Source: Escherichia coli
Lineage (GTDB): Bacteria; Pseudomonadota; Gammaproteobacteria; Enterobacterales; Enterobacteriaceae
NCBI RefSeq assembly: GCF_044647545.1
Contig: NZ_CP172818.1
Reading direction: 5' to 3' (one strand)
Length of the DNA: 64,000 nt
Position numbers and translations under genes: made by a program. The notes beneath the pieces are model-generated. The model saw only the letters and a list, made by a program, of their open reading frames with translations. It was not told the DNA's origin and made no database searches. This document shows positions 5,120 through 26,198 of this stretch, piece by piece. Positions within the stretch are counted from its first letter, which is position 1. Each line of letters starts with the position of its first letter.

Positions 5120-5204
5120 AGGCCAGAAATCCAGACTATCAATACTGACCGAACCAATCCCCCAAATACCATAATAATCGGCAATCAGACAGTAATTAAA
5201 TACC

Positions 5205-5495
5205 TAACACTTACTCTCATACTTATTTTTCCCCAAACCTTATCCCCACGACCAAACGACAAAAATAAACATCATATAGAAATTGATACCAGAAACCCCC
5301 CCATCTTTACACATAAACCACACCCACAAACGACGCAAGAAGACGATAAACCAAAAAAGAAAACCCCCCAAACGAAAAAAAAAAAAAGGAAAACCAAAAA
5401 AAAAAAAAAAAAAAAAAAAAAAAGAAAAAAAAAAGAAAAAAAAAAAAAAAAGAAAGGGAAAAAAATAAAAAAGAAAAAAAAAAAAAAAAAGATAG
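5205..5495. repeat. low-complexity A-rich tract (plus strand); core 5381-5490 is roughly 90% A with an uninterrupted A28 run at 5396-5423
   Basis: Direct inspection; 5205-5380 is already nearly G-free A/C-rich sequence that degrades progressively into poly(A); normal composition resumes abruptly at about 5491 (gatagcatgttcgctgac). Confidence 0.9.
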
Positions 5496-5567
5496 CATGT
5501 TCGCTGACAGCGGCGGCAAATAAAGATACCTAATGAATGCCATTTTATCGATTTCCGTAATTATCAT
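5496..5567 (-). other. probable original 5' end of dgcF (ATG at 5567-5565 overlapping yneG stop as ATGA), now out of frame with the GGDEF part
   Basis: ORF 5307..5567 begins MIITEIDKMAFIRYLYLPPLSANMLS then reads poly-Phe through the A/T tract; its ATG shares bases with the yneG TGA. Confidence 0.4.
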
Positions 5568-5923
5568 GGCTGATTCATCTGTATAACCAGCCAGTGATAG
5601 ATTACCGTCACAATATAACGTTGTTGCTCCTCACTTAACGCTTCCCCTTGAGGAATGTTATGCCACTTAGCCAGACAACCGCGACAACAGGTCGCGGTGG
5701 CGTGTTGAGCGATAAAAACCGGATGCCCGCGCATGGGGGTTTGCTTACCGTCGTTAGCCGGTAATGCCGGAGCAAGACGTTTAGCGACAAAATCCGCCGC
5801 ATGTTGTTCGATGACTGGCGCACCTTTCTCCAGACAATACTGACGCTCTTTCATGCCCAAACGAAAGCGAGAGCGAAATTTTGAACGGGATAAACGCGCG
5901 AAGAGTGGATCGAGAGACTGCAT
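5564..5923 (-). CDS. yneG: YneG, uncharacterised, 119 aa
   Basis: 119-aa ORF; start overlaps glsB stop by 1 bp (same operon). Confidence 0.85.
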   Translation of the reverse strand: MQSLDPLFARLSRSKFRSRFRLGMKERQYCLEKGAPVIEQHAADFVAKRLAPALPANDGKQTPMRGHPVFIAQHATATCCRGCLAKWHNIPQGEALSEEQQRYIVTVIYHWLVIQMNQP

Positions 5924-6849
5924 TAATAAACTGAACGCCCTAATTGTTTCGTCAATTGTTCAAGGACAGCAATGCCCGCAAGCGAGTTACCGGCATCATC
6001 CAGTTCCGGGCTCCAGACTGCGATGGCCATTTCATGCGGAACAATCGCCACAATACCGCCACCAACGCCAGATTTTGCCGGTAGTCCCACCCGCCAGGCA
6101 AACTCCCCCGCGTTCTGGTACATACCACTGGTCGCCATCAGCGCGTTAATTTGCCGCGCCTGCATTGGCGTCACCACAGGTTCATCAATATGAATAGCTT
6201 TACCCTGATTAGCCAGAAAGACAAACGTCCGGGCCAGCTCTACACAGCTCATTTTCAGAGCGCAGTAATGAAAGTAGTTTTGCAGAACGGTTGTCACATC
6301 ATGATGGAAATTGCCAAACGACTTCATCAGCCAGGCGATAGCCGCATTTCGCGCGGAGTGTTCAAATTCGGAACGCGCTACCACCGTATCGTAGGAAATA
6401 TCAGACACACCGCTTAAGCCGCGCACGACTTCCAGCATACGTTGCCGAGGAGCGCTTAATCGCCCTTGCAACATATCGCAGACCACCAGCGCACCGGCAT
6501 TAATAAACGGATTACGCGGAATACCCTGCTCCATTTCCAGTTGCACTAAAGAATTGAACGGTGATCCAGACGGATCTTTGCCGACGCGTTGCCAGATTTC
6601 CTCTTCGGAGTAATGACGCATGGCGACAACGAGACTCAGCACTTTGGAAATAGACTGAATGGAAAAACGTTCTTGCGCGTCTCCGGCCTGAAAAAGCTGT
6701 CCGTCAACGGTACAGATAGCAATCCCCAATCGGGAACCGTCTACCGTAGCCAGCGCCGGAATATAATCCGCGACTTTACCCTGACCAATGAGCGGCCGCA
6801 CTTGCCGCAAGATGTTTTCTAAAATTGCATTATCCATGGCGACTGCCAC
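5923..6849 (-). CDS. glsB: glutaminase 2, 308 aa
   Basis: 308-aa ORF with serine-dependent glutaminase family features (QSISKV motif); recognised. Confidence 0.9.
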
Positions 6850-6912
6850 TTTCTACTCCTGGACCGCAGGTCTGAAAAGACCTGCGAGTATATCAGAGCT
6901 GAATATATAGCG

Positions 6913-8301
6913 TCAGACCCGGTCTTTCCACACCGTCTGGATATTACAGAATTCGTGTAAGCCAAAATGGGAAAGCTCACGCCCAAAGCCACTCTTCTTC
7001 ACACCACCAAAGGCGACTCGCGCGTCGCTGGCACAGTAACCATTGATAAACACCCCACCGCATTCCAGACGTGCCGCCATCTGTCTGGCCCGGGTTTCGT
7101 CGGTGGTGAAAATGGTCGCTGAAAGGCCGAACTCGCTATTATTAGCCAGTTCCAGTGCATGTTCTGCATCTTTCGCAATGGTGATTGCCGCAACGGGGCC
7201 AAACATTTCTTCCCGAAACGCGGTCATTTCTGGGGTAACATTCGCCAGAACCGTTGGCGGATAGTAGTTACCTGCCCCAGCCATCTTTTCCCCGCCCAGT
7301 AACAAACGCGCACCCTGCGCCAGGGTTTTCTCCACCTGATGATGCAGCTCATCACGTAAATCAAAACGAGCCATTGGTCCGAGAGTGTTCTCTTCGTCAC
7401 GGGGATCGCCCATTTTCAAGGCTGCCGCAGCTGCCACAAAACGTTCGGTAAATGCCGAAGCAATTCCCTCTTCGATGATAAAGCGTTTTGCCGCTGCACA
7501 AACCTGTCCGGTATTCTGATAACGTCCGGCTACCGCCGCTTTAACCGCCAGTTCCAGATCGGCATCGTTAAGCACAATAAATGGATCCGAACCGCCCAGT
7601 TCCAGTACGCATTTTTTCAGTGCCGCTCCAGCCTGTGCGCCAATAGCCGCTCCCGCACGAACACTTCCGGTCACCGTGACAGCAGCAATGCGCGAGTCTT
7701 TAATCATCTGACTGACGCCGTCGTTGTCGGCATTCAGCCAGCCATATACGCCTTGTGGGATACCCGCATCTTTAAACACCTGGGCAATGAGCTGTGCACA
7801 GCCCATCACATTCGGCGCATGTTTAAGTAAGTAGCCGTTACCTGCAAGAATGATGGGAACCGCGCCACGCATCACCTGCCATAACGGAAAATTCCACGGC
7901 ATAATCGCCAGAATTGTCCCCAACGGTCGATACTCAATAACTGCCTGCTGATTTTCCACCAGCGTAGGTTCCGCCTTCAGCATTGCCGGACCATGTTCTG
8001 CATACCAGTCACACAAATTCGCCGATTTCGCCACTTCAGCGCGCGCCTGGTTGATTGGTTTGCCCATTTCACGGGTGATCATTTGCGCCATTTCTTCGCT
8101 ACGGACACGCAGAGCCTTACCGATATCACGCAGTTTTTCAGCACGATAATCTATATTTGTCTCGCGCCAGTCGCGAAAGCCTGCTGCCGCCAGCTGAAGT
8201 GCGTTTTCGATATCATCAGCGCCAGCCCACGGCAGCACAGAAAGTTGTTCACCGGTGGCAGGATTTATCGAAATTGCATGAGTTGCCGGAGTAATGGTCA
8301 T
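6913..8301 (-). CDS. sad: NAD-dependent succinate-semialdehyde dehydrogenase Sad (YneI), 462 aa
   Basis: 462-aa ORF; aldehyde dehydrogenase motifs (ELGGSDP, catalytic Cys region QVCAAAKRF). Confidence 0.9.
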
Positions 8302-8401
8302 CGGGGTATCTCCTTTATGGGTTATGGTAAAAAGATACGCAGATTTACTCTTGCTTGAAAATGAATAATATTAAGCCACTTATTCACGAATCGAGAATAT
8401 T

Positions 8402-9283
8402 ATGGATCTGACCCAACTGGAGATGTTCAACGCGGTTGCCGAAGCTGGCAGCATTACCCAGGCTGCAGCAAAAGTGCATCGCGTGCCGTCGAATCTCACT
8501 ACCCGTCTACGCCAGCTGGAAACAGAACTGGGGGTTGATCTGTTTATTCGCGAGAATCAGCGTTTACGTCTCTCGCCTGCCGGGCATAACTTTTTACGCT
8601 ATAGCCAACAAATTCTCGCGTTAGTGGATGAAGCGCGGAGCGTTGTCGCTGGCGATGAGCCGCAAGGTTTATTTTCTCTTGGTTCGCTGGAAAGCACCGC
8701 TGCAGTGCGCATTCCGGCCACGCTGGCGGAATTTAACCGTCGTTATCCCAAAATTCAGTTTTCACTTTCCACCGGCCCTTCCGGCACTATGCTGGAAGGT
8801 GTGCTGGAGGGAAAACTGAATGCAGCGTTTATTGATGGGCCCATTAACCATACTGCCATTGACGGGATACCGGTGTACCGCGAGGAGCTGATGATCGTCA
8901 CGCCACAAGGACATGCGCCAGTAACCCGCGCCAGTCAGGTAAATGGCAGTAACATTTATGCCTTCCGCGCCAATTGTTCGTATCGTCGCCACTTCGAGAG
9001 CTGGTTTCATGCTGATGGTGCCGCTCCGGGAACTATTCACGAGATGGAGTCGTATCACGGGATGTTGGCCTGTGTGGTCGCAGGAGCAGGCATTGCGCTT
9101 ATTCCACGCTCTATGCTGGAAAGTATGCCGGGGCATCACCAGGTTGAAGCGTGGCCGTTAGCTGAGCAATGGCGTTGGTTAACAACCTGGCTGGTCTGGC
9201 GTCGCGGTGCGAAAACGCGTCCGCTTGAGGCATTTATTCAACTACTGGATGCGCCTGACTCGGCAAAACAGGGTTACCAATGA
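8402..9283 (+). CDS. yneJ: LysR-family transcriptional regulator YneJ, 293 aa
   Basis: N-terminal HTH ([23 protein letters not shown]); divergent from sad. Confidence 0.85.
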
Positions 9284-9360
9284 GCTATTTTTGATAGTTC
9301 TTGCGGCTAATATGCTCTATATAGTGATGTTCCGATGACTTATGACTATATGGGGCAAAT

Positions 9361-10476
9361 ATGGTTACGCCAGTAAGCATCAGCAATTACATATCTCTTC
9401 CTGATGATTTTCCCGTACGTAATATTGCACCGCAGGTAAAAGAAGTTTTAAAGGATTTCATTGATGCACTTAGTACAATAATATGTGATGAAGAATGGCG
9501 CACGTCTTTAAACATCAACTCAGCCACAAAAAAGATATTTAATAACCTTGACAACTTATCATATATTCAGAGGACTTCTTTTCGGGGTAACGACACGCTA
9601 TACAATGAAAAGGTTCAGTTTAAACTCACTTATCCCGTCAAGAATGGAAGACACAAAGAAAATATTGAATTTCAGGTAGTAATAAATTTAAGCCCTATTT
9701 ATTTAGATAATTTCCGCCATGATGGGGAAATTAATATTTTTTGCGCTCCCAACCCAAAGCCTGTCACTATGGGGCGCGTATTTCAGACCGGCGTCGAGCG
9801 TGTACTCTTTCTGTTTCTGAATGACTTTATAGAACAATTTCCAATAATCAACCCTGGCGTTCCTATCAAAAGAGCGCATACGCCACATATTGAACCCCTG
9901 CATCCGGATCACCATACCGCTGCAGATTACATACGCCAGTTTGATTTGCTTGTCCTGAATTTTATCTCTCGCGGTAATTTTGTCATACTCCCCCGATTAT
10001 GGAATAACTCTGAGGTTCACAGATGGTTCGGGAATAAAGAACCTAACTTGCTCACCGCTATTCTCGACATAACGGACAGCGAATTAAAAGAGGATTTATT
10101 GCAAAGTCTGATGGATTCACTAGGTTCTAACAAACATGTACTACCCGAAGTCTGCATCTGCTTTTTATCCCTTTTAGCAGAACAAGATTTTCCACATTTT
10201 CAGGAGTTGTTTTTATTTTTCGCCAATATGTTATTGCACTATCACCAATTTATGAAACCCAATGAAAGTGATTTGATTGACGTGTTGATGCCAGCATCAT
10301 TAAGTGATGATAAAATTATCAAACATATGGCGCGCAAGACCCTCAAACTTTTTGTAAAAAATGAAACGCCGCCAAAAGTTACTCATGAAGACCTGGTGAA
10401 AAACAGGCCTCGCTCCCCTGTCAGACCACCTATACCCGCAACCTCCAAAACGCCAGACCTCCCTGAACGTCATTAA
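9361..10476 (+). CDS. yneK: uncharacterised protein YneK, 371 aa
   Basis: 371-aa ORF in AT-rich DNA with atypical codon usage; position matches yneK. Confidence 0.75.
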   Translation: MVTPVSISNYISLPDDFPVRNIAPQVKEVLKDFIDALSTIICDEEWRTSLNINSATKKIFNNLDNLSYIQRTSFRGNDTLYNEKVQFKLTYPVKNGRHKENIEFQVVINLSPIYLDNFRHDGEINIFCAPNPKPVTMGRVFQTGVERVLFLFLNDFIEQFPIINPGVPIKRAHTPHIEPLHPDHHTAADYIRQFDLLVLNFISRGNFVILPRLWNNSEVHRWFGNKEPNLLTAILDITDSELKEDLLQSLMDSLGSNKHVLPEVCICFLSLLAEQDFPHFQELFLFFANMLLHYHQFMKPNESDLIDVLMPASLSDDKIIKHMARKTLKLFVKNETPPKVTHEDLVKNRPRSPVRPPIPATSKTPDLPERH

Positions 10477-10625
10477 ACCGTGATGTGACCGACTCTCTGA
10501 CGCGTGAAAGAATCAGCGTCAGAGAAACGGAAAACGCGATCCAGATCACAAATGCATTGTATTCACATCATTAACCGTTTTAAGATCATTTCATCACTTT
10601 TTCGCAACTCACCCGATAATCTGTT

Positions 10626-11816
10626 ATGACAACAAACACTGTTTCCCGCAAAGTGGCGTGGCTACGGGTCGTTACGCTGGCAGTCGCCGCCTTCATCTTC
10701 AACACCACCGAATTTGTCCCAGTTGGCCTGCTCTCTGACATTGCGCAAAGTTTTCACATGCAAACCGCTCAGGTCGGCATTATGTTGACCATTTACGCAT
10801 GGGTAGTAGCGCTAATGTCATTGCCTTTTATGTTAATGACCAGCCAGGTTGAACGGCGCAAATTACTGATCTGCCTGTTTGTGGTGTTTATTGCCAGCCA
10901 CGTACTGTCGTTTTTATCGTGGAGTTTTACCGTTCTGGTGATCAGTCGCATTGGTGTGGCTTTTGCACATGCGATTTTCTGGTCGATTACGGCGTCTCTG
11001 GCGATCCGTATGGCTCCGGCCGGGAAGCGAGCGCAGGCTTTGAGTTTAATAGCCACCGGTACAGCACTGGCAATGGTATTAGGTTTACCTCTCGGGCGCA
11101 TTGTGGGGCAGTATTTCGGTTGGCGAATGACCTTCTTCGCGATTGGTATCGGGGCGCTTATCACCCTTTTGTGCCTGATTAAGTTACTTCCCTTACTGCC
11201 CAGTGAGCATTCCGGTTCGCTGAAAAGCCTCCCGCTATTATTCCGCCGCCCGGCATTGATGAGCATTTATTTGTTAACTGTGGTGGTTGTCACCGCCCAT
11301 TACACGGCATACAGCTATATCGAGCCTTTTGTGCAAAACATTGCGGGATTCAGCGCCAACTTTGCCACGGCATTACTGTTATTACTCGGTGGTGCGGGCA
11401 TTATTGGCAGCGTGATTTTCGGTAAACTGGGTAATCAGTATGCGTCTGCGTTGGTGAGTACGGCGATTGCGTTGTTGCTGGTGTGCCTGGCACTGCTGCT
11501 ACCTGCGGCGAACAGTGAAATACACCTCGGGGTGCTGAGTATTTTCTGGGGGATCGCGATGATGATCATCGGGCTTGGTATGCAGGTTAAAGTGCTGGCG
11601 CTGGCACCAGATGCTACCGACGTCGCGATGGCGCTATTCTCCGGGATATTTAATATTGGAATCGGCGCGGGTGCGTTGGTAGGTAATCAGGTCAGTCTGC
11701 ACTGGTCAATGTCGATGATTGGTTATGTGGGCGCGGTGCCTGCTTTTGCCGCGTTAATATGGTCAATCATCATTTTTCGCCGCTGGCCAGTGACACTCGA
11801 AGAACAGACGCAATAG
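10626..11816 (+). CDS. sotB: MFS sugar efflux transporter SotB (YdeA), 396 aa
   Basis: 396-aa ORF with about 12 predicted TM segments; recognised. Confidence 0.9.
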
Positions 11817-11819
11817 TTG

Positions 11820-11844
11820 AAAGGCCCATTCGGGCCTTTTTTAG
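11820..11844 (+). terminator. rho-independent terminator after sotB
   Basis: aaaggcccattcgggcc hairpin followed by T6. Confidence 0.6.
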
Positions 11845-12506
11845 TGGTACGTTTTAATGATTTCCAGGATGCCGTTAATAATAAACTGCACCCCCATACA
11901 TACCAGCAGGAATCCCATCAGACGGGAGATCGCTTCAATGCCACCCTTGCCCACCAGCCGCATAATCGCGCCGGAGCTGCGTAGGCTTCCCCACAAAATA
12001 ACCGCCACCAGGAAAAAGATCAGCGGCGGCGCAACCATCAGTACCCAATCAGCAAAGGTTGAACTCTGACGCACTGTGGACGCCGAGCTAATAATCATCG
12101 CTATGGTTCCCGGACCGGCGGTACTTGGCATTGCCAGTGGTACAAAAGCAATATTGGCGCTGGGTTCATCTTCCAGCTCTTCCGACTTGCTTTTCGCTTC
12201 CGGTGAATCAATCGCTTTCTGTTGCGGAAAGAGCATCCGAAAACCGATAAACGCGACGATTAAGCCGCCTGCAATTCGCAGACCGGGAATCGAAATGCCA
12301 AATGTATCCATCACCAGTTGCCCGGCGTAATACGCCACCATCATGATGGCAAAGACGTACACCGAGGCCATCAACGACTGACGATTACGTTCGGCACTGT
12401 TCATGTTGCCTGCCAGGCCAAGAAATAACGCGACAGTTGTTAATGGGTTAGCTAACGGTAGTAACACCACCAGCCCCAGGCCAATTGCTTTAAATAAATC
12501 TAACAT
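11841..12506 (-). CDS. marC: MarC-family inner membrane protein, 221 aa
   Basis: 221-aa hydrophobic ORF divergent from marRAB. Confidence 0.9.
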
Positions 12507-12599
12507 TGGTGGTTGTTATCCTGTGTATCTGGTTTATCAGCGAAAAGTATAAGGGGTAAACAACGATAAAGTGTCACTCTTTAGCTAACCTTGCATCGC

Positions 12600-12717
12600 A
12601 CTGACCAAAACTTGAACCGATTTAGCAAAACGTGGCATCGGTCAATTCATTCATTTGACTTATACTTGCCTGGGCAATATTATCCCCTGCAACTAATTAC
12701 TTGCCAGGGCAACTAAT
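12600..12717 (+). promoter_or_regulatory. marO: marRAB promoter/operator with marbox (12619-12643) and two palindromic MarR sites (about 12662-12678 and 12697-12715)
   Basis: gatttagcaaaacgtggcatcggtc marbox; TTGCC..GGCAA palindromes tacttgcctgggcaata and ttacttgccagggcaacta immediately upstream of the GTG start. Confidence 0.8.
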
Positions 12718-13152
12718 GTGAAAAGTACCAGCGATCTGTTCAATGAAATTATTCCATTGGGTCGCTTAATCCATATGGTTAATCAGAAGAAAGATCGCCT
12801 GCTTAACGAGTATCTGTCTCCGCTGGATATTACCGCGGCACAGTTTAAGGTGCTCTGCTCTATCCGCTGCGCGGAGTGTATTACTCCGGTTGAACTGAAA
12901 AAGGTATTGTCGGTCGACCTGGGGGCGCTGACCCGTATGCTGGATCGCCTGGTCTGTAAAGGCTGGGTGGAAAGGTTGCCGAACCCGAATGACAAGCGCG
13001 GCGTACTGGTAAAACTTACCACCAGCGGCGCGGCAATATGTGAACAATGCCATCAATTAGTTGGCCAGGACCTGCATCAAGAATTAACAAAAAACCTGAC
13101 GGCGGACGAAGTGGCAACACTTGAGCATTTGCTTAAGAAAGTCCTGCCGTAA
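12718..13152 (+). CDS. marR: multiple antibiotic resistance repressor MarR, 144 aa, GTG start; carries E53, S103, H137
   Basis: Recognised sequence; codons 12874-12876 gag, 13024-13026 agc, 13126-13128 cat. Confidence 0.95.
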
Positions 13153-13172
13153 ACAAAAAAAGAGGTATGACG

Positions 13173-13556
13173 ATGTCCAGACGCAATACTGACGCTATTA
13201 CCATTCATAGCATTTTGGACTGGATCGAGGACAACCTGGAATCGCCACTGTCACTGGAGAAAGTGTCAGAGCGTTCGGGTTACTCCAAATGGCACCTGCA
13301 ACGGATGTTTAAAAAAGAAACCGGTCATTCATTAGGCCAATACATCCGCAGCCGTAAGATGACGGAAATCGCGCAAAAGCTGAAGGAAAGTAACGAGCCG
13401 ATACTCTATCTGGCAGAACGATATGGCTTCGAGTCGCAACAAACTCTGACCCGAACCTTCAAAAATTACTTTGATGTTCCGCCGCATAAATACCGGATGA
13501 CCAATATGCAGGGCGAATCGCGCTTTTTACATCCATTAAATCATTACAACAGCTAG
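13173..13556 (+). CDS. marA: AraC-family activator MarA, 127 aa
   Basis: [31 protein letters not shown]...; second ATG of the ORF chosen. Confidence 0.95.
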
Positions 13557-13587
13557 TTGAAAACGTGACAACGTCACTGAGGCAATC

Positions 13588-13806
13588 ATGAAACCACTTT
13601 TATCCGCAATAGCAGCTGCGCTTATTCTCTTTTCCGCGCAGGGCGTTGCGGAACAAACCACGCAGCAGTTTGTTACTTCCTGTGCCAATGTCGTGGTTGT
13701 TCCCCCATCGCAGGAACAACCACCGTTTGATTTAAATCACATGGGTACTGGCAGTGATAAGTCGGATGCGCTCGGCGTGCCCTATTATAATCAACACGCT
13801 ATGTAG
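13588..13806 (+). CDS. marB: MarB, periplasmic small protein, 72 aa
   Basis: 72-aa ORF with signal peptide after marA. Confidence 0.9.
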   Translation: MKPLLSAIAAALILFSAQGVAEQTTQQFVTSCANVVVVPPSQEQPPFDLNHMGTGSDKSDALGVPYYNQHAM

Positions 13807-13836
13807 TTTGTTCTGGCCCCGACATATCGGGGCTTA

Positions 13837-14736
13837 TTAACTTCCCACTTTTACCGCTTTACGCCACCGCAAGCCAAATACATTGATATACAGCCCGGTC
13901 ATAATGAGCACCGCACCGAAAAATTGCAGGCCCGTTAAGCGTTCATCCAGCAATAGTGCCGCACTTGCCAGTCCAACTACAGGCACCAGTAACGATAACG
14001 GTGCAACCCGCCAGGTTTCATAGCGTCCCAGTAACGTCCCCCAGATCCCATAACCAACAATTGTCGCCACAAACGCCAGATACATCAGAGACAAGATGGT
14101 GGTCATATCGATAGTAACCAGACTGTGAATCATGGTTGCGGAACCATCGAGAATCAGCGAGGCAACAAAGAAGGGAATGATTGGGATTAATGCGCTCCAG
14201 ATTACCAGCGACATCACCGCCGGACGCGTTGCGTGCGACATGATCTTTTTATTGAAGATGTTGCCACACGCCCAACTAAATGCTGCCGCCAGGGTCAACA
14301 TAAAGCCGAGCATCGCCACATGCTGACCGTTCAGACTATCTTCGATTAACACCAGTACGCCAAAAATCGCTAAGGCGATCCCCGCCAATTGTTTGCCATG
14401 CAGTCGCTCCCCGAAAGTAAACGCGCCAAGCACGATAGTAAAAAACGCCTGTGCCTGTAACACCAGCGAAGCCAGTCCAGCAGGCATACCAAAGTTAATG
14501 GCGCAGAACAGAAAGGCAAACTGCGCAAAACTGATGGTTAATCCATACCCCAGCAGCAAATTCAGTGGTACTTTCGGTCGTGCGACAAAAAAGATAGCCG
14601 GAAAAGCAACCAGCATAAAGCGCAAACCGGCCAACATCAGCGGTGGCATGTTATGAAGCCCCACTTTGATGACCACAAAATTTAGCCCCCATACGACCAC
14701 TACCAGTAGCGCCAACACCCCATCTTTTCGCGACAT
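13837..14736 (-). CDS. eamA: cysteine/O-acetylserine exporter EamA (YdeD), 299 aa
   Basis: ORF with internal Met MSRKDGVLALLVVVVWG...; drug/metabolite-transporter family features. Confidence 0.9.
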   Translation of the reverse strand: MSRKDGVLALLVVVVWGLNFVVIKVGLHNMPPLMLAGLRFMLVAFPAIFFVARPKVPLNLLLGYGLTISFAQFAFLFCAINFGMPAGLASLVLQAQAFFTIVLGAFTFGERLHGKQLAGIALAIFGVLVLIEDSLNGQHVAMLGFMLTLAAAFSWACGNIFNKKIMSHATRPAVMSLVIWSALIPIIPFFVASLILDGSATMIHSLVTIDMTTILSLMYLAFVATIVGYGIWGTLLGRYETWRVAPLSLLVPVVGLASAALLLDERLTGLQFFGAVLIMTGLYINVFGLRWRKAVKVGS

Positions 14737-14930
14737 TCTACCGCCTCTGAATTTCATCTTTTGTAAGCAATCAACTTAGCTGAATTTACTTTTCTTTAAC
14801 AGTTGATTCGTTAGTCGCCGATTACGACGGCATTAATGCGCAAATAAGTCGCTATACTTCGGATTTTTGCCATGCTATTCCTTTACATCTCTAAAACAAA
14901 ACATAACGAAACGCACTGCCGGACAGACAA

Positions 14931-16118
14931 ATGAACTTATCCCTACGACGCTCTACCAGCGCCCTTCTTGCCTCGTCGTTGTTATTAACCATCGGACGCG
15001 GCGCTACGCTGCCGTTTATGACCATTTACTTGAGTCGCCAGTACAGCCTGAGTGTCGATCTAATCGGTTATGCGATGACAATTGCGCTCACTATTGGCGT
15101 CGTTTTTAGCCTCGGTTTTGGTATCCTGGCGGATAAGTTCGACAAGAAACGCTATATGTTACTGGCAATTACCGCCTTCGCCAGCGGTTTTATTGCCATT
15201 CCTTTAGTGAATAACGTGACGCTGGTGGTGCTCTTTTTTGCCCTTATTAACTGCGCCTATTCCGTTTTTGCTACCGTGTTGAAAGCCTGGTTTGCCGACA
15301 ATCTTTCCTCCACCAGCAAAACGAAAATCTTCTCAATCAACTACACCATGCTCAACATTGGCTGGACCATCGGTCCGCCGCTCGGCACGCTGTTGGTGAT
15401 GCAGAGCATCAATCTGCCCTTTTGGCTGGCAGCTATCTGTTCCGCGTTTCCCATGCTTTTCATTCAAATTTGGGTAAAGCGCAGCGAGAAAATCATCGCC
15501 ACGGAAACAGGCAGTGCCTGGTCGCCGAAAGTTTTATTACAAGATAAAGCACTGTTGTGGTTTACCTGCTCTGGTTTTCTGGCTTCCTTTGTTAGTGGCG
15601 CATTTGCTTCATGCATTTCACAATATGTGATGGTGATTGCTGATGGGGATTTTGCCGAAAAGGTGGTCGCGGTTGTTCTTCCGGTGAATGCCGCCATGGT
15701 AGTTACGTTGCAATATTCCGTGGGCCGCCGACTTAACCCGGCTAACATCCGCGCGCTGATGACAGCAGGCACCCTCTGTTTCGTCATCGGTCTGGTTGGT
15801 TTTATTTTTTCCGGCAACAGCCTGCTAATGTGGGGTATGTCAGCTGCGGTATTTACTGTCGGTGAAATCATTTATGCGCCGGGCGAGTATATGTTGATTG
15901 ACCATATTGCGCCGCCAGGAATGAAAGCCAGCTATTTTTCCGCCCAGTCTTTAGGCTGGCTTGGTGCTGCGATTAACCCATTAGTGAGTGGCATAGTACT
16001 TACCAGTCTGCCGCCTTTCTCGCTGTTTATCATCTTAGCGTTGGTGATCGTTGCTGCGTGGGTGCTGATGTTAAAAGGAATTCGTGCAAGACCGTGGGGG
16101 CAGCCCGCGCTTTGTTGA
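14931..16118 (+). CDS. ydeE: MFS transporter YdeE, 395 aa
   Basis: 395-aa ORF, multiple TM segments. Confidence 0.9.
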   Translation: MNLSLRRSTSALLASSLLLTIGRGATLPFMTIYLSRQYSLSVDLIGYAMTIALTIGVVFSLGFGILADKFDKKRYMLLAITAFASGFIAIPLVNNVTLVVLFFALINCAYSVFATVLKAWFADNLSSTSKTKIFSINYTMLNIGWTIGPPLGTLLVMQSINLPFWLAAICSAFPMLFIQIWVKRSEKIIATETGSAWSPKVLLQDKALLWFTCSGFLASFVSGAFASCISQYVMVIADGDFAEKVVAVVLPVNAAMVVTLQYSVGRRLNPANIRALMTAGTLCFVIGLVGFIFSGNSLLMWGMSAAVFTVGEIIYAPGEYMLIDHIAPPGMKASYFSAQSLGWLGAAINPLVSGIVLTSLPPFSLFIILALVIVAAWVLMLKGIRARPWGQPALC

Positions 16119-16245
16119 TTTAAGTCGAACACAATAAAAATTTAATTCAGCCTTCGTTTAGGTTACCTCTGCTAATATCTTTCTCATTGAGATGAAAATT
16201 AAGGTAAGCGAGGAAACACACCACACCATAAACGGAGGCAAATAA

Positions 16246-16341
16246 TGCTGGGTAATATGAATGTTTTTATGGCCGTACTGGGAATAATTTTATTTTCTGG
16301 GTTTCTGGCCGCGTATTTCAGCCACAAATGGGATGACTAAT
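16246..16341 (+). CDS. mgtS: small membrane protein MgtS (YneM), 31 aa
   Basis: atgctgggtaatatgaatgtt... encodes MLGNMNVFMAVLGIILFSGFLAAYFSHKWDD; terminator hairpin follows. Confidence 0.8.
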
Positions 16342-16367
16342 GAACGGAGATAATCCCTCACCTAACC

Positions 16368-16407
16368 GGCCCCTTGTTACAGTTGTGTACAAGGGGCCTG
16401 ATTTTTA
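16368..16407 (+). terminator. rho-independent terminator of mgtS
   Basis: ggccccttgt...acaaggggcc stem followed by tgattttta. Confidence 0.6.
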
Positions 16408-16415
16408 TGACGGCG

Positions 16416-16513
16416 AAAAAAAACCGCCAGTAAACCGGCGGTGAATGCTTGCATGGATAGATTTGTGTTTTGCTTTTACGCTAACAGGCATTTTCCTGCA
16501 CTGATAACGGATC
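16416..16513 (-). ncRNA. mgrR: MgrR sRNA (PhoP-dependent, Hfq-binding); coordinates approximate
   Basis: Minus-strand PhoP box, candidate -10 TACTGT about 22 bp downstream, and a terminator (ccgccggtttactggcgg + T8) about 98 nt from the predicted start. Confidence 0.6.
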
Positions 16514-16546
16514 GTTGACACAGTAGCATCAGTTTTCTCAATGAAT

Positions 16547-16564
16547 GTTAAACGGAGCTTAAAC
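16547..16564 (-). promoter_or_regulatory. PhoP box (GTTTAA-N5-GTTTAA direct repeat) upstream of mgrR
   Basis: Minus strand reads gtttaagctccgtttaac. Confidence 0.6.
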
Positions 16565-17449
16565 TCGGTGAATCACGTTTTGTTCGTCAATAAACATACA
16601 GCGATTTCTTCCGGTTTGCTTACCCTCATACATTGCCCGGTCCGCTCTTCCAATGACCACATCCAGAGGCTCTTCAGGAAATGCGCGACTCACACCTGCT
16701 GTCACGGTAATGTTGATATGCCCTTCAGAATGTGTGATGGCATGGTTATCGACTAACTGGCAAATTCTGATACCTGCACGACATGCTTCTTCATCATTAT
16801 CCGCTTTGACAATAATGATAAATTCTTCGCCCCCGTAGCGATAAACCGTTTCGTAATCACGCGTCCAACTGGCTAAGTAAGTTGCCAGGGTGCGTAATAC
16901 TACATCGCCGATTAAATGCCCGTAGGTATCATTAACCAATTTAAATCGGTCAATATCCAACAACATTAAATAAAGATTCAGAGGCTCAGCGTTGCGTAAC
17001 TGATGATCAAAGGATTCATCAAGAACCCGACGACCCGGCAATCCCGTCAAAACATCCATATTGCTACGGATCGTCAGCAAATAAATTTTGTAATCGGTTA
17101 ATGCCGCAGTAAAAGAAAGCAACCCTTCCTGAAAGGCGTCGAAATGCGCGTCCTGCCAGTGATTTTCAACAATAGCCAACATTAATTCCCGACCACAGTT
17201 ATGCATATGTTGATGGGCAGAATCCATTAGCCGAACGTAAGGTAATTCATCGTTATCGAGTGGCCCCAGATGATCAATCCACCGACCAAACTGGCACAGT
17301 CCATAAGAATGGTTATCCGTTATTTCTGGCTTACTGGCATCTCTCGCGACCACGCTGTGAAACATACTTACCAGCCACTGGTAGTGGGCATCGATAGCCT
17401 TATTGAGATTTAACAAGATGGCATCAATTTCCGTTGTCTTCTTGATCAT
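16559..17449 (-). CDS. dgcZ: zinc-regulated diguanylate cyclase DgcZ (YdeH), 296 aa
   Basis: GGEEF motif (YRYGGEEFIIIV); internal Met MIKKTTEIDAILL... Confidence 0.9.
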   Translation of the reverse strand: MIKKTTEIDAILLNLNKAIDAHYQWLVSMFHSVVARDASKPEITDNHSYGLCQFGRWIDHLGPLDNDELPYVRLMDSAHQHMHNCGRELMLAIVENHWQDAHFDAFQEGLLSFTAALTDYKIYLLTIRSNMDVLTGLPGRRVLDESFDHQLRNAEPLNLYLMLLDIDRFKLVNDTYGHLIGDVVLRTLATYLASWTRDYETVYRYGGEEFIIIVKADNDEEACRAGIRICQLVDNHAITHSEGHINITVTAGVSRAFPEEPLDVVIGRADRAMYEGKQTGRNRCMFIDEQNVIHRV

Positions 17450-17703
17450 TGCCACTCCTTTTTCACAGTTCCTTGTGCGCGCTATTCTAACGAGAGAAAA
17501 GCAAAATTACGTCAATATTTTCATAGAAATCCGAAGTTATGAGCCATCTCTGAGATAACATTGTGATTTAAAACAAAATCAGTAGATAAAAAAGTGTTTA
17601 ATTCTGTAAATTAACTCTGCATTATCGCAATTAAAAGGATGACAAATAGCATAACCCAATACCCTAATGGCCCAGTAGTTCAGGCCATCAGGCTAATTTA
17701 TTT

Positions 17704-18096
17704 TTATTTCTGCAACTGAGTGACCCGAACGACGGCCGGCGCGCTTTTCTTATCCAGACTGCCGCTAATGTTGATCATCTGGTCCGGCTGAACTTCTCGT
17801 CCATCAAAGACGGCCGCAGGAATAACAACATTAATTTCACCGCTCTTATCGCGAAAAACGTAACGGTCCTCTCCTTTGTGAGAAATCAAATTACCGCGTA
17901 GTGAAACCGAAGCGCCATCGTGCATGGTTTTTGCGAAATCAACGGTCATTTTTTTTGCATCGTCGGTTCCGCGATAGCCATCTTCTATTGCATGAGGCGG
18001 CGGTGGCGCTGCATCCTGTTTTAAACCGCCCGGGTCATCTGCCAACGCATAAGGCATGACAAGAAAACTTGCTAATACAATGGCCTGAAATTTCAT
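17704..18096 (-). CDS. ydeI: OB-fold (BOF/YgiW family) periplasmic protein YdeI, 130 aa
   Basis: 130-aa ORF with signal peptide [19 protein letters not shown]. Confidence 0.85.
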
Positions 18097-18298
18097 ACTG
18101 ACTCCTTAATTGCGTTTGGTTTGACTTATTAAGTCTGGTTGCTATTTTTATAATTGACAATTAAGATTACTTCCAATTGTTATAAGGCATTTAAAATCAG
18201 GTAACTAGCTGTCAAATATTCAGAGAATTTAACTCACTAAGGTTAAGAAGAAGATTAAAGAGTCTTAAACATATTTCAGAATAATCAGATTTATAAAT

Positions 18299-18414
18299 TT
18301 GAAAATTATTATAACGGAAGGGTATACAAAAAAAGATTTTGCTGGCGACTGCGAAACGGCATTCGCATTAGCGGTGAAGTTTGCCCTCGCCCAGCTGCTG
18401 CAATTACTGCTATA
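18299..18414 (+). pseudogene. ydeJ: short remnant resembling the C-terminus of CinA-like YdeJ; most of the gene appears absent
   Basis: Frame ending ...DFAGDCETAFALAVKFALAQLLQLLL* 46 bp before the convergent dcp stop; only about 360 bp separate ydeI from dcp, no ATG and no upstream CinA-domain coding sequence. Confidence 0.4.
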
Positions 18415-18459
18415 ACGAGGCTGGTCTGGCGATAAATCCAGGCCAGCCATTGGTGGTGT

Positions 18460-20505
18460 TTATACGTTCAAGCCACGATGTTGCAGCATCGGCATAATCT
18501 GAGGTGCCTTACCGCGCCATTGTCGATACAGGCGTTCCAGATCCTCGCTGTTACCTCTGGAAAGGATCGCCTCGCGAAAACGCAGCCCATTTTCACGCGT
18601 TAATCCGCCCTGCTCAACAAACCACTGATAACCATCATCGGCCAACATTTGCGTCCACAGATAAGCGTAATAACCCGCGGCATATCCGCCACCAAAAATA
18701 TGGGCGAAATAACTGCTGCGATAGCGTGGCGGTATAGCGGGAAGATCCATATTTTCCGCCACCAGCGCCCGCAATTCGAAATCATCGACATCCTGCATTG
18801 CTTCGTTTTCTTCCAGGCAATGCCAGCGCATATCGAGAAGTGCGGCGCTAAGCAGTTCGCTCATCTCATACCCTTTATTGAACAGGCTGGCATTACGCAT
18901 TTTCTGTTGCAGTTCGTCAGGCATTGCTGCCCCGCTCTGATAATGCCGGGCGTAGCGAGCGAATACCTGCGGATGCGTTGCCCAGTGTTCGTTGATTTGC
19001 GACGGAAATTCGACAAAATCACGCGGCGTGTTGGTGCCGGAAAGCGTAGCATAACGCTGGCAGGCAAACAGGCCGTGCAGCGTATGACCAAATTCATGGA
19101 ATAAGGTTATTACATCATCCCAGAGTAACAACGCAGGCTCCCCAGCAGCGGGTTTCTGATAATTGCAGACGTTATAAATTACCGGATGCGTTTCATTAAG
19201 CGTTGATTGCTCAACAAAATTGCCCATCCATGCACCGCCGCTTTTTGAATCACGGGCGAAGAAATCACCGTAAAATAACGCCAGCCCCACGCCATTATGA
19301 TCAAAAATTTCCCACACCCGAACGTCAGGATGGTAGACAGGAATATCAAAACGTTCGACAAACTTAATACCGAAGAGCTGATTCGCAGTCCAGAATACAC
19401 CTTCATTCAACACCGTGTTTAATTCAAAATATGGCTTGAGCTGCGATTCATCGAGATCGAATTTCTCACGTCTTACCTGCTCGGCATAAAATGCCCAGTC
19501 CCACGGCTGCGCGCTAAACCCGCCCTGCTGCTTATCGATAACCGCCTGTATGGAGGCTAATTCATCGCTCGCACGTTGACGCGCCGCTGGAACAATTTCC
19601 CGCATAAAGTTGAGCGCTGCTTCTGGCGTTTTTGCCATCTGATCGGCGATTTTCCATGCGGCATAATGAGGAAAACCAAGCAGTTTCGCCTGCTGCGCGC
19701 GGATCTCCACCAGACGTTGAATGATAGCGCGGGTATCATTGGCATCATTTTTTTCCGCTCGCATCCAGCCCGCAGTAAACAGTTTTTCACGCGTCGCGCG
19801 ATCGCACAGTTCAGCAAGCGCTGGTTGTTGGGTGGTATTCAGCAGCGGAATCAGCCATTTGTTATACAGACCTTTCTCGCGAGCCGCCTCTGCCGCCAGC
19901 GCAATCTCTTGCTCACTCATTCCTGCCAGCTGCGCGATATCGTTCACAACCAGACCGCCGGATTTATTTGCTGCCAGTAACCGCTGGTTAAACTGGCTGG
20001 TCAGGGTCGCAGCTTCTGTATTCAGTACTTTTAATTTTGCTTTATCAGCTTGCTTAAGTTTGGCTCCGGCAAGGACAAAACGTTGATGAATCACCTCCAC
20101 CAGGCGGATGGATTCACTATCAAGCCCCAGGGATTCACGGCGCTGCCAGACAGCATCTACCCGCGCGAATAATTCCCCGTTCAGATAGATATCATTCGCA
20201 AGTTCCGCCAGTTCAGCGGAAAACTGTTCATCAAGACGCTGTAATTCATCATTGGTATGCGCCGCAGTCATCGCAAAAAAGACGCTGGTAACGCGGGTAA
20301 GTAATTCTCCGCTTTGTTCCAGTGCCAGAATAGTATTGTTGAAATCAGGTGTTTGCGGGTTAAGCGCGATGGCAGCAATTTCTGCCCGCTTTTGCTGCAT
20401 TCCCTCATCGAATGCCGGGCGATAGTGATGATTGGCAATTTGATCAAAATGGGGAGCCAGATACGGCAGTGTGCTTTGCACAAGGAAAGGATTCATTGTT
20501 GTCAT
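18460..20505 (-). CDS. dcp: peptidyl-dipeptidase Dcp, 681 aa
   Basis: M3 zinc-metallopeptidase motif HEFGH; start taken at MTTMNPFLVQ... Confidence 0.95.
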   Translation of the reverse strand: MTTMNPFLVQSTLPYLAPHFDQIANHHYRPAFDEGMQQKRAEIAAIALNPQTPDFNNTILALEQSGELLTRVTSVFFAMTAAHTNDELQRLDEQFSAELAELANDIYLNGELFARVDAVWQRRESLGLDSESIRLVEVIHQRFVLAGAKLKQADKAKLKVLNTEAATLTSQFNQRLLAANKSGGLVVNDIAQLAGMSEQEIALAAEAAREKGLYNKWLIPLLNTTQQPALAELCDRATREKLFTAGWMRAEKNDANDTRAIIQRLVEIRAQQAKLLGFPHYAAWKIADQMAKTPEAALNFMREIVPAARQRASDELASIQAVIDKQQGGFSAQPWDWAFYAEQVRREKFDLDESQLKPYFELNTVLNEGVFWTANQLFGIKFVERFDIPVYHPDVRVWEIFDHNGVGLALFYGDFFARDSKSGGAWMGNFVEQSTLNETHPVIYNVCNYQKPAAGEPALLLWDDVITLFHEFGHTLHGLFACQRYATLSGTNTPRDFVEFPSQINEHWATHPQVFARYARHYQSGAAMPDELQQKMRNASLFNKGYEMSELLSAALLDMRWHCLEENEAMQDVDDFELRALVAENMDLPAIPPRYRSSYFAHIFGGGYAAGYYAYLWTQMLADDGYQWFVEQGGLTRENGLRFREAILSRGNSEDLERLYRQWRGKAPQIMPMLQHRGLNV

Positions 20506-20641
20506 TTTCTTCTCCTGAACGCGAGGTGTTCCATAGCGTAGGCTTACTGATAACGGAGTGCAATCTTGCAAACCAGTATTACCCGCTCTTAAGCATCACG
20601 TGCTATGTTATTGACACACAAAAGCGTTGAGGAACAGTGAG

Positions 20642-21388
20642 ATGATCGTTTTAGTAACTGGAGCAACGGCAGGTTTTGGTGAATGCATTACTCGTCGTTT
20701 TATTCAACAAGGGCATAAAGTTATCGCCACTGGCCGTCGCCAGGAGCGGTTGCAGGAGTTAAAAGACGAACTGGGAGATAATCTGTATATCGCCCAACTG
20801 GACGTTCGCAACCGCGCCGCTATTGAAGAGATGCTGGCATCGCTTCCTGCCGAGTGGTGCAATATTGATATCCTGGTAAATAATGCCGGTCTGGCGTTGG
20901 GCATGGAGCCTGCGCATAAAGCCAGCGTTGAAGACTGGGAAACGATGATTGATACCAACAACAAAGGCCTGGTATATATGACGCGCGCCGTCTTACCGGG
21001 TATGGTTGAACGTAATCATGGTCATATTATTAACATTGGCTCAACGGCAGGCAGCTGGCCGTATGCCGGTGGTAACGTTTACGGTGCGACGAAAGCGTTT
21101 GTTCGTCAGTTTAGCCTGAATCTGCGTACGGACCTGCATGGTACGGCGGTGCGCGTCACCGACATCGAACCGGGTCTGGTGGGTGGCACCGAGTTTTCCA
21201 ATGTCCGCTTTAAAGGCGATGACGGTAAAGCGGAAAAAACCTATCAAAATACCGTTGCATTGACGCCAGAAGATGTCAGCGAAGCCGTCTGGTGGGTGTC
21301 AACGCTGCCTGCTCACGTCAATATCAATACCCTGGAAATGATGCCGGTTACCCAAAGCTATGCCGGACTGAATGTCCACCGTCAGTAA
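20642..21388 (+). CDS. ydfG: NADP-dependent short-chain dehydrogenase YdfG, 248 aa
   Basis: SDR glycine motif TGATAGFG, catalytic YxxxK region. Confidence 0.9.
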   Translation: MIVLVTGATAGFGECITRRFIQQGHKVIATGRRQERLQELKDELGDNLYIAQLDVRNRAAIEEMLASLPAEWCNIDILVNNAGLALGMEPAHKASVEDWETMIDTNNKGLVYMTRAVLPGMVERNHGHIINIGSTAGSWPYAGGNVYGATKAFVRQFSLNLRTDLHGTAVRVTDIEPGLVGGTEFSNVRFKGDDGKAEKTYQNTVALTPEDVSEAVWWVSTLPAHVNINTLEMMPVTQSYAGLNVHRQ

Positions 21389-21476
21389 TTTTTATACCCG
21401 GCGTAACTGCCGGGTTATTGCTTGTCACAAAAAAGTGGTAGACTCATGCAGTTAACTCACTCACAAGCAAGAACGA

Positions 21477-22163
21477 ATGACCGTCGAAACGCAACTTAAT
21501 CCCACACAGCCTGTCAATCAGCAGATTTATCGTATTCTTCGTCGCGACATTGTCCATTGCCTGATTGCTCCAGGCACACCGTTGTCGGAAAAAGAAGTTT
21601 CTGTTCGTTTCAATGTGTCACGCCAGCCGGTTCGTGAAGCCTTTATTAAACTGGCGGAAAACGGCCTGATTCAAATTCGTCCGCAGCGTGGCAGCTACGT
21701 CAACAAAATTTCCATGGCCCAGGTGCGCAACGGCAGTTTTATCCGTCAGGCCATTGAGTGCGCGGTGGCGCGTCGGGCGGCGAGCATGATTACCGAAAGC
21801 CAGTGCTACCAACTGGAACAAAATCTTCACCAGCAACGCATTGCCATTGAGCGCAAGCAACTGGATGATTTTTTTGAACTTGATGACAACTTCCATCAAC
21901 TCCTGACCCAGATTGCCGACTGTCAACTGGCGTGGGAAACCATTGAGAACCTGAAAGCGACCGTTGATCGCGTGCGCTATATGAGTTTCGACCACGTTTC
22001 TCCACCAGAAATGCTGTTACGCCAGCATCTTGAGATTTTCTCTGCCCTGCAAAAACGTGATGGCGATGCGGTAGAACGTGCAATGACGCAACATTTGCAG
22101 GAAATCAGCGAATCTGTGCGCCAGATCCGCCAGGAAAACAGCGACTGGTTTAGCGAAGAGTAA
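21477..22163 (+). CDS. ydfH: GntR/FadR-family regulator YdfH (RspR), 228 aa
   Basis: N-terminal GntR HTH plus FCD domain. Confidence 0.85.
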
Positions 22164-22339
22164 TTCATTTCCTCTCATCCCATCCGGGGTGAGAGTCTTT
22201 TCCCCCGACTTATGGCTCATGCATGCATCAAAAAAGATGTGAGCTTGATCAAAAACAAAAAATATTTCACTCGACAGGAGTATTTATATTGCGCCCGTTA
22301 CGTGGGCTTCGACTGTAAATCAGAAAGGAGAAAACACCT

Positions 22340-22543
22340 ATGACGACCTACGATCGTAACCGTAACGCAATCACCACTGGCAGCCGTGTTATGGTTAGCG
22401 GCACCGGTCACACTGGCAAGATCCTGTCGATTGATACTGAAGGTCTGACCGCTGAGCAAATCCGCCGCGGAAAAACCGTAGTTGTTGAAGGTTGTGAAGA
22501 GAAACTGGCACCTCTGGACCTGATTCGTCTCGGCATGAACTAA
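22340..22543 (+). CDS. ydfZ: YdfZ, small protein, 67 aa
   Basis: 67-aa ORF with strong terminator immediately downstream. Confidence 0.85.
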
Positions 22544-22550
22544 GCGTGTG

Positions 22551-22580
22551 AATGCCGCCGATGGCGGCATTGCTTTTTTT
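22551..22580 (+). terminator. rho-independent terminator after ydfZ
   Basis: aatgccgccgatggcggcatt hairpin followed by T7. Confidence 0.7.
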
Positions 22581-24039
22581 ACTTCACGGAATATTTCGCC
22601 ACGGTCGCTTTCGCACCATGCGCTAATAAAGACAAGTACGCTTCCGTCACTTTTGCAGTAAACAAGCTATTGTCTGGCAAATCATCACCAAAGATCGCCT
22701 TAATCGCCAGCAATGACTGGACGCGCGCTTTCCCTTCGGCACTACTTTGTACAGCCTTCTGAATAACAGGTAACAGTGGGTCACTGATTTCTATCGGATT
22801 TCCCTGTTCATCAACACCACCGACATAACGCATCCAACCCGCGACGCCTAGCGCCAGCAGATCGAACTTGCTGTCATGCGCCAGATGCCAGCGAACAGAA
22901 TCCAACATCCGCTGTGGCAATTTCTGGCTGCCATCCATCGCAATCTGCCAGGTTCGATGACGTAGCGCCGGGTTGCTATAGCGTTCAATTAATCGGTTAG
23001 CGTAATCTTGCAAATCAACGCCCTGCACTTTCAACGTCGGCGCTTGTTCATGCAACATCAAGGCATACGCTGCATGACGATAATGTTCATCTTCCATGCA
23101 GTCATTAATGTGCTGATATCCGGCAAGATAACCCAGATACGCCAGGAATGAATGACTGCCGTTGAGCATGCGCAACTTCATCTCTTCATAAGGCAGCACA
23201 TCACTAACCAGTTCGGCTCCCGCTTTTTCCCATTCCGGACGTCCGGCAACAAAGTTATCTTCTATTACCCACTGGCGGAAAGGTTCACAGGCAACGCCAG
23301 CAGGATCGCGCACACCGGTAAGTTGTTCGATTTTCGCCAGCGTATCCTCTGTCACTGCGGGCACAATACGGTCCACCATTGTTGATGGGAAAGTCACGTT
23401 TTCTTCGATCCATTGTGCCAGTTTTACATCAACAGCTTGCGCGTAGGAAGTGACAACGTCACGCATAACATGACCGTTTTCTGGCATGTTGTCACATGAC
23501 ATGACGGTAAATGCGGGAAGTCCTGCCGCTTTACGGCGAGCCAGCGCCTCGACAATCACCCCTATTGCAGTTTTCGGCTGGTGGGGATTTTGTACATCGG
23601 CAACGACCATCGGGTGATCGGGCATTAACTGTCCGGTCGCCGGAGAGTGGAAATACCCTTTTTCGGTGATTGTCAGAGAGACAATCGCGATTTGCGGTTC
23701 ACACATCGCAGCCAACACGGTTTCTAAGCCATCAATCTGTACGTGCAAGGCTTTTTTAACGACGCCAACGACGCGAGCCGTCCACGCATCGGCCGACATT
23801 TCCGCAACGGTATAAAGATTATCTTGCTGTTGTAAATCGGCAATTTGCTGTTCGCCGCCGATTAAATTGACCTCATAATATCCCCAGTCACTGAAATGTT
23901 CCGTAGCAAGAATATCGGCATACACACCCTGATGCGCACGGTGAAATGCACCAAAGCCTAAATGAACAATTCTTGGGGCCAGGTTATTACGATCATAAAC
24001 AGGGAGCGTCGCTTTTGCTGATAACAAATTATTTCCCAT
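22579..24039 (-). CDS. ydfI: mannitol/mannonate dehydrogenase-family oxidoreductase YdfI, 486 aa
   Basis: 486-aa ORF, paralogous to UxaB/UxuB-type enzymes. Confidence 0.9.
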
Positions 24040-24128
24040 AACAATTCCTTAAATTTAAATATGGCAAGCTGCATGTTTTGTTATATGAATAAAAAATCCC
24101 CTCTCCGGTAAGAGAAGGGATGGAGGAT

Positions 24129-25412: not shown

Positions 25413-25416
25413 AATT
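25403..25416. repeat. attL core copy
   Basis: gaaatccataattc; 11 identical bases plus TTC shared with the right-end copy. Confidence 0.6.
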
Positions 25417-26198
25417 CACAGGTGTTTTTTCCCATCCTGTGGTTTCCTTGGCGTTTTCTAGGTTTTTTCAGATAGTTGCATTTTTTAAAAAGCATCCTAA
25501 GTTCGATCTCAGTGTCTATCTGGGGCCTATTTCTGTCCCATATATGCCCCAAAAAAAACTCCCCAACAGATAAGTAGTTTTTTCATGGATTTATGCGTAA
25601 AATCAAGAACGGCTGGAAATCATTCAATACTCACACTATCGAAAAATTTACCAGCCAACCGCAGCACGTTCTTGCATAAGGCGTGTCTGCGGTTTTTCAA
25701 CTATTCAGATACATCACTCCCATCACATTCATTCCTCCGCATCAAAGGCATATAGGCTATATCACCTTGATATTTTTCTTTTTCAGATAAAAACTGTTAT
25801 CTATGTATACTTTTAAACCCAATCCGTGTAGAGTCTCTGCATAAGATAGTTTACAGTTGCCGCTTCAGCTTGCGCCATAAACCGCCTGATTTTTGCTGCC
25901 ACCTGTTAGCATTCCTGTATACCTGAAACGACAATGTTTATCTACGAACTTTAAGAACACCCAAGATAAAAATTGTCAACTATATCATATATAACACATT
26001 ACTAATTCGAGGCTATATGAACAGCATACTGATAATCACATCTCTCCTTATCATATTCAGCATTTTTAGTCATGCCCTAATAAAATTAGGGATTGGCATA
26101 TCCAATAACCCAGACAAAACCGATGTATAAGTCAACATATCCTGAATCAGACATACAATATCGCAATGAAAATCAATAATATTTTAAGGAATATCTTC

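Follow-up and report, generated by a model that had tools for sequence, protein, structure and literature searches.

The closest described relative of the protein considered here is the MarR repressor of E. coli K-12 (P27245; structures 1JGS, 3VOD, 3VOE, 4JBA, 3VB2 and 5H3R). Its DNA-binding region comprises aa 55–100, and the marbox of the marRAB promoter lies at −80 to −99 relative to the marR start (PMC5890708). Cys80 is the only sensor of Cu2+ and other oxidants in MarR, and the protein carrying C47S/C51S/C54S/C108S/C111S still binds DNA and responds (PMC8614764, PMC12017873). The marR alleles of clinical isolates are mostly single low-cost substitutions that combine high fitness with small MIC gains (PMC5890708), and R77H, when engineered into clinical isolates, raises ciprofloxacin resistance (PMC11110942). 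The validated resistance alleles, such as R77H, R94C and frameshifts, either alter DNA-binding residues that do not vary or yield a truncated protein. In a survey of isolates 75.7% had MarR substitutions, G103S together with Y137H being the commonest (PMC7082582), and this pair showed no association with the level of levofloxacin resistance (PMC4317672).

The MarR genotype that combines A53E with these two substitutions is already known. It was published as 'G103S, Y137H, A53E', relative to NP_416047, for isolates E23, E34 and 26N, all three of which are highly ciprofloxacin-resistant, and the genotype was listed descriptively (PMC5177599). This descriptive paper was the one relevant report returned by a literature search for marR A53E and for A53E/G103S/Y137H, which yielded no functional assay of A53E. 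The literature on marR and ST648 did not yield this allele, and the main text of a paper on the marR mutation spectrum mentions neither A53 nor G103S nor Y137H.

The stretch of DNA analysed here, termed the window, covers 64,000 nucleotides of E. coli contig NZ_CP172818.1 (assembly GCF_044647545.1) and contains a marR gene encoding this genotype. The gene and its differences from MG1655 marR (NC_000913.3, 1619120-1619554), compared base by base, are as follows:

12718..13152, plus strand: marR coding sequence, 144 codons, GTG start (from the open reading frame list, the MG1655 comparison and the annotation as marR in every match)
12874..12876, plus strand: codon 53, GAG (Glu); GCG (Ala) in K-12 and in 98% of E. 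coli genomes
12875, plus strand: C158A, GCG>GAG, A53E
marR nt 207 and 210, plus strand: A207G and A210G, silent
13024..13026, plus strand: codon 103, AGC (Ser), the majority E. coli state; GGC (Gly) in K-12
13024, plus strand: G307A, GGC>AGC, G103S
marR nt 360, plus strand: C360T, silent
13126..13128, plus strand: codon 137, CAT (His), the majority E. coli state; TAT (Tyr) in K-12
13126, plus strand: T409C, TAT>CAT, Y137H

The encoded protein has the same length as K-12 MarR, lies in the same marC/marO/marRAB context and is identical to it at 141 of 144 residues; it differs in having E53, S103 and H137 where K-12 has A53, G103 and Y137, and the six base differences divide equally into three missense and three silent ones. 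The preliminary description had named the same three substitutions at the same codons (gag, agc and cat), and the comparison with MG1655 bore them out, as the reference indeed has A53/G103/Y137. The window's protein is RefSeq WP_022645711.1. Neither the open reading frame list nor the MG1655 comparison revealed a truncation, frameshift, insertion or deletion, and the 144-codon frame is intact. The winged-helix domain is present, the 99%-identical cluster representative of the protein having precomputed PF01047/PF12802/PF22381 assignments, while the PDB chains of MarR are matched over the full length (E=1.9e-91) and the predicted fold follows the expected order of helix, helix, strand, wing and strand. 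All 40 columns that are invariant in an alignment of 40 orthologous sequences are kept, R73, R77 and R94 being among the residues tested, and Cys80 is retained. Unlike the validated resistance alleles, the window's allele has an intact frame and its substitutions fall at variable positions.

The surroundings of the gene are those of the K-12 locus, with marC diverging upstream, two MarR sites in marO, and marA and marB following marR:

11841..12506, minus strand: marC, divergently transcribed from marRAB
12619..12638, plus strand: marbox, the activator site for MarA, SoxS and Rob, gatttagcaaaacgtggcat; identical to K-12
12655..12715, plus strand: marRAB promoter and operator marO, sequence read directly; identical to K-12
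12655-12660, plus strand: −35 element of the marRAB promoter, TTGACT
12663-12680, plus strand: MarR site I of marO, tacttgcctgggcaatat
12678-12683, plus strand: −10 element of the marRAB promoter, TATTAT
12698-12715, plus strand: MarR site II of marO, tacttgccagggcaacta
13173..13556, plus strand: marA, protein identical to K-12 MarA
13588..13806, plus strand: marB, with S5L, P27Q, V28F and H44Q relative to K-12 (4 of 72 residues); WP_000803527.1, as in IAI39 and CE10

The positions of the marO elements in the window follow the legend of Figure 1 in PMC5890708, together with the general layout of marO. Across 12606-12717 there is no difference from MG1655, and the marC-marR spacer upstream of the marbox has five SNPs relative to K-12. 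Among the compared strains marB is far more polymorphic than marA or marR. In every respect that lends itself to testing on the sequence, the locus is that of E. coli MarR/marRAB, the repression of marRAB and its relief by salicylate, Cu2+ or oxidants being predicted.

The frequency of each allele was counted in 5,426 complete E. coli genomes with 55-base queries that carried the variant at base 28; since every required 28-base seed word spans the variant, matches are restricted to genomes having the queried allele. At position 53, E53 was found in 86 genomes (1.6%) and A53 in 5,326. At position 103 the counts were 4,222 (78%) for S103 and 1,190 for G103, and at position 137 they were 4,220 (78%) for H137 and 1,194 for Y137. 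At each position the window and K-12 alleles sum to about 5,415, the number of genomes having any marR. S103 and H137, which were also seen in O157:H7 and phylogroup F strains, are thus the majority state of E. coli and K-12 is the minority form; the two look like mutations because K-12 is used as the yardstick. The genome counts agree with the survey of isolates (PMC7082582) and, with the reported lack of association with levofloxacin resistance (PMC4317672), sustain the earlier view of G103S and Y137H as common natural variants.

The distribution of E53 is a different one. When an E-value cut-off that passes perfect 435-base matches only was applied, the 435-nt marR gene proved identical to the window's in 82 of the 86 E53 genomes among the complete E. 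coli genomes. These come from humans, dogs, pigs, a calf, chickens, wild birds, a dolphin, cheese and wastewater, in many countries on several continents, and they include strain ST648 (CP008697) and MS6198, both typed as phylogroup F, ST648 (PMC8281228). In a direct pairwise comparison, window positions 5487-25418 are 99.98% identical to strain ST648, whereas the mar region is 98.3% identical to MG1655, in line with the early suspicion that the source is not MG1655 itself. None of the seven MLST loci mapped inside the window. The phylogroup F strains IAI39, SMS-3-5 and CE10 carry A53, and the window's allele, identical in the typed ST648 genomes, is absent from all three. When the C at nt 158 is restored (E53 to A53), the gene becomes 100% identical to the marR of these three strains and of APEC O78:H4. 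The phylogroup F/G allele, whose product WP_000843419.1 is the common S103/H137 MarR of most E. coli and Shigella, therefore differs from the window's by C158A alone, one base and one residue, and A53E is a single C>A change derived from the F-type haplotype. This distribution makes A53E a marker that the ST648 lineage has inherited and no new mutation of this isolate.

Two flank haplotypes carry the F-type E53, one ST648-like (ST648, DFL.5) and the other WB61-like (WB61, Z30, CFSAN061771, BroCaecum-55, HCM-24C-3). Within the 14-kb flanks, the WB61-like haplotype differs from the window at 33 sites, all of them upstream of 11778 (5848-11777, from yneG to ydeA), whereas the 8.1-kb block from 11778 to 19900 is identical or has a single-base difference in all six E53 genomes with long flanks. 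This pattern points to a single origin of the F-type E53 that was probably followed by recombination nearby, and it implies a putative breakpoint within ydeA or immediately past it. The lineage has a second change of its own between marC and marR, T>C at 12601, which precedes the marR start by 117 nt and the marbox by a short distance. Position 12601 is T in K-12, IAI39, SMS-3-5, CE10, APEC E12049 and 2017.04.03CC, so that the phylogroup F/G allele genomes lack this change; the exact 475-nt upstream haplotype (12400-12874) occurs in only 80 genomes, and T>C at 12601 is near-completely linked to E53. The site is, we presume, roughly where Fis binds.

The comparison with strain ST648 also revealed several features of the window away from the mar locus. 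Between 5160 and 5490 most G residues are first lost (29 one-base gaps), and the sequence then turns into near-pure poly-A (about 5340-5490), which replaces some 320 bp from the 5' portion of a sensor diguanylate-cyclase gene and the region upstream of it; from 5487 on the sequence is normal again. An artefact of the reads or the assembly, or some corruption of the stretch, seems a better account of it than biology. From 25418 to 46247 a 20.8-kb lambdoid prophage remnant, flanked by the repeat GAAATCCATAA, is inserted in ydfJ. Its genes specify a DNA invertase, tail fibre, Rz spanin, endolysin, Q antiterminator, HNH endonuclease, RecE-like exonuclease and integrase. Strain ST648 (CP008697) lacks the remnant, which splits the window's sequence match to ST648 genomes. 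In K-12 the same target gene is presumably occupied by the Qin prophage. At about 18336 the window has a one-base length difference from all compared ST648-type genomes, beside a remnant of the 2-oxo-tetronate isomerase gene (ydeJ) that is annotated as a pseudogene fragment in the ST648-type lineage.

The three substituted residues occupy the most variable positions of the protein. In a set of 94 full-length MarR representatives, at least 68% identical, position 137 ranks first in variability among the 144 positions, position 53 second and position 103 third. Orthologues have V, G, A, E, T, S, K, Q or I at position 53; Glu53 is native in eight other representatives, three Buttiauxella species included, and Enterobacter-type MarR has Glu at position 52. 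In the AlphaFold model (mean pLDDT 83), which places helices at 40-52, 57-64 and 68-80, residue 53 caps α2 where the α2–α3 loop begins, residue 103 stands at the beginning of α5 and residue 137 belongs to the last helix. The latter is the C-terminal dimerisation helix, yet H137 is the majority allele. Residues 53 and 103 are both outside aa 55-100, residue 53 by two positions, and the three substitutions spare the conserved residues both of the DNA-binding region and of the dimer interface.

A53E places a negatively charged side chain four residues ahead of Pro57, with which helix α3 starts. The preliminary description had placed the substitution next to Cys51 and Cys54 and considered that it could affect repressor function and hence multiple antibiotic resistance. 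The position is right, as residue 53 lies between the two cysteines; a change of repressor function is not the likely consequence, since both cysteines are dispensable, the site is variable and the allele is inherited by a lineage, a mild effect being conceivable but unlikely. The concern over the cysteines finds no support because only Cys80 senses oxidants and Cys-substituted MarR binds DNA (PMC8614764, PMC12017873).

Four E53 genomes have a marR that is not identical to the window's: 2017.04.03CC, WP5-S18-ESBL-08, E17 and isolate 624. The first, a human isolate from Viet Nam with 4.56 Mb (NZ_AP025205.2, marR 6871-7305), carries A53E on a K-12-type haplotype, with G103, Y137 and the K-12 silent markers, and the MarR protein with A53E on the K-12 type occurs on eight contigs of a large collection. 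A single origin of all E53 was therefore rejected. In 2017.04.03CC, E53 would be either an independent mutation or a gene-conversion tract (under about 320 nt) from an ST648-type donor, two possibilities that sequence does not distinguish.

The other three genomes have acquired further marR changes on top of A53E, namely L135V in WP5-S18-ESBL-08, R77H in E17, and A41T with a one-base deletion in isolate 624. The deletion matches window position 13063 and causes a frameshift at about codon 116. The aligned orthologues show no variation at R77 or L135, and both R77H and the frameshift are lesions of the validated type that here occur secondarily within the E53 lineage. No silent marR change was seen within the lineage, the secondary changes all being protein-altering in this small sample. 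There are four such changes in 3 of 85 E53-lineage genomes, compared with about one expected by a rough hand estimate from the SNP density of the flanks, the sample being small and partly picked as non-identical, so that no significance is claimed. With three genomes only, the secondary lesions suggest ongoing selection for marR lesions on an E53 MarR that would still repress.

Taken together, the window very probably holds an intact, working marRAB locus with the natural marR allele of the ST648 lineage (phylogroup F), in which A53E most likely leaves MarR a functional, inducible repressor. One C>A change on a phylogroup-F marR haplotype produced E53, which a globally spread lineage has since inherited. 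With E53 placed in the loop that joins α2 and α3, ahead of the DNA-binding region and at a freely variable site, MarR should still repress marRAB and remain inducible, and with MarR functional A53E alone would give no multiple-antibiotic-resistance phenotype. Comparison of sequences, orthologues and literature revealed no sign that A53E disables the repressor. The sequence itself, the allele frequencies, the lineage distribution and the variability among orthologues are observed, and from them we infer the functional neutrality of the substitution.

Among the alternatives, the one that survives best holds that A53E is a mild, low-cost partial loss of function. Slight derepression of marRAB would raise AcrAB-TolC and lower OmpF, and the allele would have become fixed in ST648 as a stepping stone toward fluoroquinolone and multidrug resistance. 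We consider this unlikely, though it is not without grounds. The clinical marR alleles favour just such high-fitness single substitutions with small MIC gains (PMC5890708), ST648 is a multidrug-resistant lineage in which a mild allele could fix, and recurrence of the same C>A on the unrelated K-12-type haplotype could hint at selection; moreover, residue 53 is two positions before the DNA-binding region and gains a negative charge. However, only one position varies more among orthologues than 53, where several genera natively have Glu, DNA binding survives replacement of the neighbouring cysteines, and the allele is unchanged in isolates from wild birds, a dolphin and food. If repression were already lost, the R77H and frameshift gained within the E53 lineage would add little. 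The high ciprofloxacin resistance of the three published A53E isolates, which might be taken as further support, is explained by gyrA S83L/D87N (PMC5177599). These isolates share the three MarR substitutions of the window and may belong to the E53 ST648 lineage; they also have AcrR H115Y, which, like the gyrA changes, concerns a locus outside the window.

A bolder variant, which we regard as distinctly unlikely, is that A53E, perhaps with the linked T>C at 12601, would be a low-cost tuning allele that slightly raises basal marRAB expression. It would have been fixed early in ST648, would have arisen independently in a phylogroup-A-like strain and would aid the multidrug-resistant success of the clone.

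De novo selection of A53E as a resistance mutation in this isolate, under antibiotics, is highly improbable: fluoroquinolones and other drugs are known to exert selection on marR, but the lineage-wide distribution, the 82 genomes with the identical allele and the 8.1-kb block (11778-19900) shared by six E53 genomes refute it. A sequencing or assembly error in one or more of the three MarR differences, which the corrupted stretch decaying into poly-A elsewhere in the window (about 5160-5490) might bring to mind, is next to impossible, as 82 independent complete genomes show exactly the same six marR differences from K-12.

If it were true that A53E mildly derepresses marRAB, a regulatory resistance allele would have become fixed in a global clone, and nothing in the present analysis points there. 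A caution follows for the reading of marR in E. coli as a whole. G103S and Y137H are still reported as possible causes of efflux-mediated resistance (e.g., PMC7082582), and with K-12 as the reference 78% of E. coli genomes seem to carry these "marR mutations". A53E, in turn, should in the first instance be taken to mark the ST648 lineage.
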